A DNA stretch of 64,000 bases, from NCBI RefSeq assembly GCF_024700885.2, contig NZ_CP117016.1. One strand, given 5' to 3'. The translations under genes were made by a program, and so were the position numbers. Origin of the DNA: Escherichia coli (GTDB taxonomy: Bacteria; Pseudomonadota; Gammaproteobacteria; Enterobacterales; Enterobacteriaceae). Positions 25,403 to 25,425 of this stretch are shown in pieces. Positions within the stretch are counted from its first letter, which is position 1. Each line of letters opens with the position of its first letter. The notes under the pieces were generated by a model. That model ran no database searches. It was not told where the DNA came from and saw only the letters and a program-made list of their open reading frames with translations.

Positions 25403-25425
25403 AATAAGGATGTTGTAACTAAAGT
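25403..25425. promoter_or_regulatory. Replication terminus site TerB (Tus binding) in the tus promoter
   Basis: aataaggatgttgtaactaaagt contains the Ter core GNATGTTGTAAC; lies 10 bp upstream of the tus start. Confidence 0.8.

Follow-up and report, generated by a model that had tools for sequence, protein, structure and literature searches.

The stretch of Escherichia coli DNA analyzed here, 64 kb in length and referred to below as the window, carries genes in the order ydgC, rstA, rstB, tus, fumC, fumA/B, manA, ydgA and uidCBA, the order found around TerB in K-12. The gap between rstB and tus is 75 nt long and holds a Ter site, TerB. The list of open reading frames available for the window starts tus at a GTG at 25424; we used the ATG at 25436-25438, where RefSeq genomes place the start; it lies 10 nt from Ter, the same distance as in K-12. 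The features of this locus are listed below.

24059..25360, + strand: rstB, the upstream neighbor, whose stop codon lies 42 nt before Ter
25375..25380, + strand: putative -35 element of tus, TGGTCA, a tentative assignment that agrees with TTGACA at 4 of 6 positions and precedes the -10 element by 17 nt
25395..25403, + strand: putative extended -10 element of tus, TG-c-TATAAA, as read from the sequence; its last base is Ter position 1
25403..25425, + strand: TerB, predicted Tus-binding replication terminator, 22 of 23 positions identical to K-12 TerB and unique in the window; the 25403 end is the non-permissive face and the 25425 end the permissive face
25408, both strands: G.C pair at Ter position 6; the - strand C is the predicted lock base that flips into the Tus pocket
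25409, + strand: Ter position 7, where the window has G and K-12 has T; a frequent natural variant at a position that Tus does not contact
25436..26365, + strand: tus, encoding the 309-aa Tus (DNA replication terminus site-binding protein), assigned from the open reading frame, a match to the Tus structure and the annotation in an identical genome

The chromosomal setting is shared with other E. coli genomes. An ungapped comparison of the window with E. coli MLI114 (NZ_CP117013.1) gave 0 mismatches over 49.8 kb, and a 25-kb query taken from the window was 100% identical to several genomes. The rstB-Ter-tus junction was present in 5,422 of 5,426 complete E. coli genomes, and the K-12 arrangement is the same. 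Three of the 5,426 genomes had no match to the rstB-tus junction, and one match was plasmid-borne. In strain KTa005 (H30), the junction is split over two places, and in E. coli E69 (L023), which belongs to a species-representative collection, the only Ter match is not linked to tus.

A phage- or satellite-type block was also observed in the window at ~690-15042. It encodes large and small terminase, portal, HK97 prohead protease, capsid, primase and an Icd-like protein, and its tyrosine integrase is located at ~13813-15042 on the - strand. The block adjoins a tqsA remnant (~15219-16124), which is annotated without its N-terminus in MLI114, 100% identical here. This organization suggests that a prophage-like element integrated into tqsA, ~10 kb from TerB. 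In the whole 64-kb window, no Rfam family reached its gathering score, and a scan for tRNA and tmRNA genes was negative.

The TerB sequence of the window (25403-25425, + strand, 23 bp) is AATAAGGATGTTGTAACTAAAGT. It agrees at 22 of 23 positions with K-12 TerB, AATAAGTATGTTGTAACTAAAGT, which was taken from the DH5alpha locus (L001) in an alignment of rstB-tus junctions designated A1. The sole difference is a T to G change at Ter position 7 (window position 25409); every other base, including G6 and all of positions 8-23, agrees with K-12 TerB. The core GNATGTTGTAAC is located at 25408-25419 (GGATGTTGTAAC). The initial annotation had proposed a conserved Ter core within 25403-25425, upstream of tus. 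Its coordinates were exact, and the site does lie upstream of tus, with the ATG 10 nt beyond. It had left the flanking positions open; when aligned to canonical TerB, both flanks are those of K-12. It had also named a core substitution at a Tus-contacting position as the observation that would count against the site. None is present, the only change being at the non-contacted position 7. The strictly conserved core of strong sites, ATGTTGTAACTA (positions 8-19), is intact and is identical in this segment to both TerB and TerC of K-12.

When the 64-kb window was searched with the K-12 TerB 23-mer, allowing up to 3 mismatches, 25403-25425 was the single match (1 mismatch), and 0 of 100 dinucleotide-preserving shuffles contained a match at the same threshold. 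We also used the Ter consensus GNRNGTTGTAAYKA (positions 6-19), which reportedly goes back to Coskun-Ari & Hill 1997. Its only exact match in the 64 kb is at 25408-25421. Four further matches to it in the window each contain a mismatch, a number only moderately higher than the 2.0 expected from shuffles. A repeat search around TerB found neither direct nor inverted repeats; none would be expected where a monomer binds an asymmetric site.

A second GTTGTAAC octamer occurs within malX, at 41699-41721 on the - strand (TGCCGGAACGTTGTAACCTGATT), and has G at the equivalent of position 6. This candidate for an extra Ter was rejected because it departs from the consensus at positions 9, 18 and 19, and it is most likely a chance pseudo-Ter.

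Matches to AAGNATGTTGTAACTAAAGT were also detected outside E. coli in a scan of genome contigs, and most of them are not adjacent to tus. The majority of these non-tus matches correspond to one orthologous intergenic Ter, in which a T-run and an A-run are followed by the conserved 3' end of a convergent gene, and this site is conserved in many Enterobacterales genera. The loci not linked to tus are L011-L013, L015, L017, L018, L020, L021, L023-L030, L035-L040, L042, L045-L047, L049 and L050. The 20-nt Ter pattern was further seen in L014 and L034 (Bacillota MAG, Enterococcus cecorum) and in L019 (Psychroserpens), with no Tus match in the surrounding DNA examined. As judged by eye, the sites in these three loci apparently lie within coding sequence, and they look like chance or coding-driven matches.

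Tus encoded by the window is identical to the crystallized protein (PDB 1ECR/2I06) at 303 of 309 residues (E = 2.8e-204). Its six substitutions relative to K-12 are I23A, H116R, K119Q, A221T, N225D and H253Y, the last of which is 3 residues from Q250, a DNA-contacting residue. Residues E49, I79, K89, F140, H144, G149, A173, R198 and Q250 are unchanged. These are functionally important residues of Tus, reportedly described in Mulcair 2006, Neylon 2000 and Elshenawy 2015. Four of the unchanged residues (I79, F140, H144 and G149) form the C(6) pocket, and the other five (E49, K89, A173, R198 and Q250) are implicated in binding or arrest.

The distribution of the position 7 allele was analyzed at two scales. 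Alignment A1 covers the rstB-tus junction of the window and of strains DH5alpha (K-12), ST131, O157:H7, 83972, O103, SL124 and O7:H4. Among these eight sequences, Ter varies only at positions 2 and 7. K-12, O103 and SL124 have T at position 7, where the window, ST131, 83972, O157:H7 and O7:H4 have G. At position 2, T is confined to O157:H7 and O7:H4, and the remaining sequences have A. Outside Ter, window position 25392, within the spacer that separates the putative -35 and -10 elements of tus, is T versus C in the seven other strains.

For allele counts, 5,426 complete E. coli genomes were searched with 30-nt queries (GCTATAA followed by the 23-mer), and 28 contiguous identical bases were required. 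The allele of the window (G7) was found in ~1,371 genomes, an allele combining A2T with G7 in 1,258, and the K-12 allele (T7) in 2,359. Combined, at least 2,629 of the 5,426 genomes carry a G7 allele, which makes G7 at least as common as T7. In ~435 genomes the rstB-tus junction is present and none of the three 30-mers matched. Earlier queries that were shifted to the right gave 798 and 2,344 genomes, lower counts that are due to a flank SNP in ST131-type strains. At most 465 of the 5,426 genomes lie within one mismatch of the window across the 141-nt junction. The term TerB-like used in the initial annotation is an understatement: the site is TerB proper, and its allele is no rarer than that of K-12. 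Variation of position 7 among E. coli phylogroups has been reported (Goodall et al. 2021, PMC8347550).

Outside E. coli, eight tus-linked loci were available for comparison, from E. albertii, E. whittamii, Escherichia sp. E1V33, Escherichia sp. MOD1-EC7003, Enterobacter sp. R1(2018), Cedecea colo and two Pectobacterium species. Tus identity in these species is 50-97%, and 50-60% outside Escherichia. In two of them, E. whittamii and Escherichia sp. E1V33, the Ter next to tus carries G7; in the other six it carries T7. The tus-vicinal sites of other Enterobacterales differ from the E. coli site in that positions 1-5 vary. They resemble it in that Ter lies 8-13 nt before the tus start and is abutted by TATAA(A/T), an arrangement found in 8 of the 8 loci (type I/II fork traps, Toft et al. 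2021, PMC8707476). According to the same study, the tus-vicinal site is the innermost terminator outside Enterobacteriaceae, and in E. coli TerC lies inside it (PMC8707476).

Within E. coli, the site resembles K-12 TerB in its rstB-Ter-tus locus, strand and distance to the tus ATG, in addition to the 22 shared bases. It is unlike K-12 TerB in having G7 for T7, in the T at 25392 in the promoter spacer, and in being accompanied by a Tus that differs at 6 of 309 residues. K-12 TerC, ATATAGGATGTTGTAACTAATAT as read from the MG1655 record, also has G at position 7. Positions 6-20 (GGATGTTGTAACTAA), G7 included, are common to the TerB of the window and K-12 TerC, and the two have the same fork-trap polarity; positions 1-5 and 21-23 differ. 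Unlike TerB, K-12 TerC is located between yneE and uxaB, is not adjacent to tus and has no operator role.

These comparisons bear on whether the site is a fully competent terminator. The one change from reference TerB falls inside the G6-A19 region that is usually called the core, and a reading in which T7G weakens TerB, leaving a tus operator that is a poor fork barrier, i.e., a degenerate or pseudo-Ter, could be built on this. We regard that reading as hardly credible. Position 7 is described, in the part of the Goodall et al. report that cites Coskun-Ari & Hill 1997, as tolerant of change and free of base-specific Tus contacts in both the bound and the locked complex (PMC8347550). TerC, which has the same bases from G6 to A20, is the most used terminator in K-12, with high affinity and the ability to form the lock (PMC8707476). 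Moreover, G7 is present not only in the E. coli genomes counted above, but also in two other Escherichia species, in the Ter linked to tus (L022 and L041), and a frequency as high as that in E. coli is not expected of a deleterious change. On the identity with TerC and the allele frequencies, we rejected the idea of G7 as a damaging core substitution. The adjacent G at 25408 (Ter position 6) is intact. It pairs with C(6), the lock base (PMC8707476, PMC4499146), which is essential for permanent arrest (PMC4499146). By sequence comparison, the G7 allele is not expected to be a defect. The more extreme proposal, that TerB is a functionless Ter-like sequence that arose by chance, can be dismissed: it is contradicted by the absence of matches in the shuffles, and by a tus-adjacent position that is orthologous in 5,422 of the 5,426 E. 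coli genomes and in other genera.

The orientation of TerB was examined relative to GC skew. On the + strand, 13 of 15 8-kb intervals of the window show negative skew, including the whole 16-40 kb region around TerB and rstB-tus. Negative skew indicates that the + strand is the lagging strand, and therefore that the usual fork moves from right to left and reaches Ter position 23, on the permissive face, first. Judged by this skew, the orientation of TerB fits a fork trap: the site is predicted to be permissive to the usual fork and to block forks leaving the terminus. In K-12, TerB is the tus-proximal terminator and blocks clockwise forks, and its fork-trap orientation is the same as here. The non-permissive face is the end with positions 1-6, where unwinding breaks the GC(6) pair and springs the lock (PMC8707476). 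Fork arrest or pausing at E. coli TerB has been published (PMC8707476).

The same site is placed such that it could act on tus transcription. The promoter hexamers of tus given in the feature list were read by eye and are putative. A generic sigma-70 consensus scan of 25100-25600 called no promoter; because the scanner requires T at position 6 of the -10 hexamer and TATAAA ends in A, this result is not evidence of absence. Transcription of tus would be expected to start at ~25409-25411, 6-8 nt past the -10 hexamer (25398-25403), an interval that includes Ter position 7. With the predicted start inside TerB, bound Tus would occlude RNA polymerase. The hexamers that abut Ter in all eight of the other tus-linked loci, with the start codon 8-13 nt after Ter, support a conserved promoter/operator design, as far as sequence can indicate. 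Autoregulation of Tus through TerB is credited to Roecklein et al. 1991 and Roecklein & Kuempel 1992 in passages of two later reports (PMC8707476, PMC8347550), and the putative TG-n-TATAAA abutting TerB appears to fit this published autorepression.

Taken together, the site is almost certainly the chromosomal E. coli TerB in its widespread G7 allele, functioning both as a Tus-bound polar fork barrier and as the operator for tus autorepression. The analysis directly shows how closely the sequence matches TerB, that the site occupies the orthologous position, how it is oriented with respect to GC skew, how well Tus is conserved and how frequent the allele is. For Tus binding, lock formation, fork arrest and repression at this particular TerB, we infer from the literature and from orthology that they would proceed as described for E. 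coli, which supports the initial annotation in its expectation of autoregulation and fork arrest here.

In the proposed mechanism, monomeric Tus, encoded 10 nt downstream, would bind the asymmetric 23-bp TerB. A fork moving from left to right, i.e., one that comes from the terminus and has passed TerC, would unwind the 25403 end first. C(6) on the - strand at 25408 would then be freed and dock in the cytosine pocket of Tus, so that the complex would be locked and the fork would stop. The usual fork, moving from right to left, would meet the 25425 end and displace Tus. In addition, TerB abuts or overlaps the putative -10 element and the expected tus start, and bound Tus would exclude RNA polymerase from this region, which would keep Tus low. 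The role of TerB would thus be that of a back-up polar fork barrier behind TerC and of an operator for tus autorepression.

One further proposal modifies this explanation and does not replace it. Since the predicted start of tus (25409-25411) includes position 7, a G or T at or near this putative start might tune promoter strength or repression and thereby produce lineage-specific Tus levels. The alleles do divide by lineage in the eight aligned strains, with T7 in K-12, O103 and SL124 and G7 in ST131, 83972, O157:H7 and O7:H4. However, neutral descent would give such a lineage split as well. Furthermore, G7 and T7 both occur among Escherichia species and T7 occurs in more distant genera, which is consistent with neutral toggling. 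We consider tuning improbable, and a quantitative effect of the G/T difference on tus expression unlikely. Somewhat less probable still is a more specific form of the idea, in which position 7, divided about half and half in E. coli, may set lineage-specific Tus expression or autorepression, possibly co-varying with changes in Tus such as H253Y.

The preferred explanation, a chromosomal TerB in the G7 allele that serves as a polar fork barrier and a tus operator, contains nothing new. TerB and its operator role are textbook knowledge for E. coli, and the variation at position 7 was already published by Goodall et al. 2021. The importance of the present analysis extends little beyond correct annotation. 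In this regard, the TerB sequence of K-12, with T at position 7, is not the majority form, as G7 is slightly more common among the 5,426 complete genomes; consequently, a search for exact copies of the K-12 23-mer will overlook TerB in roughly half of E. coli strains.
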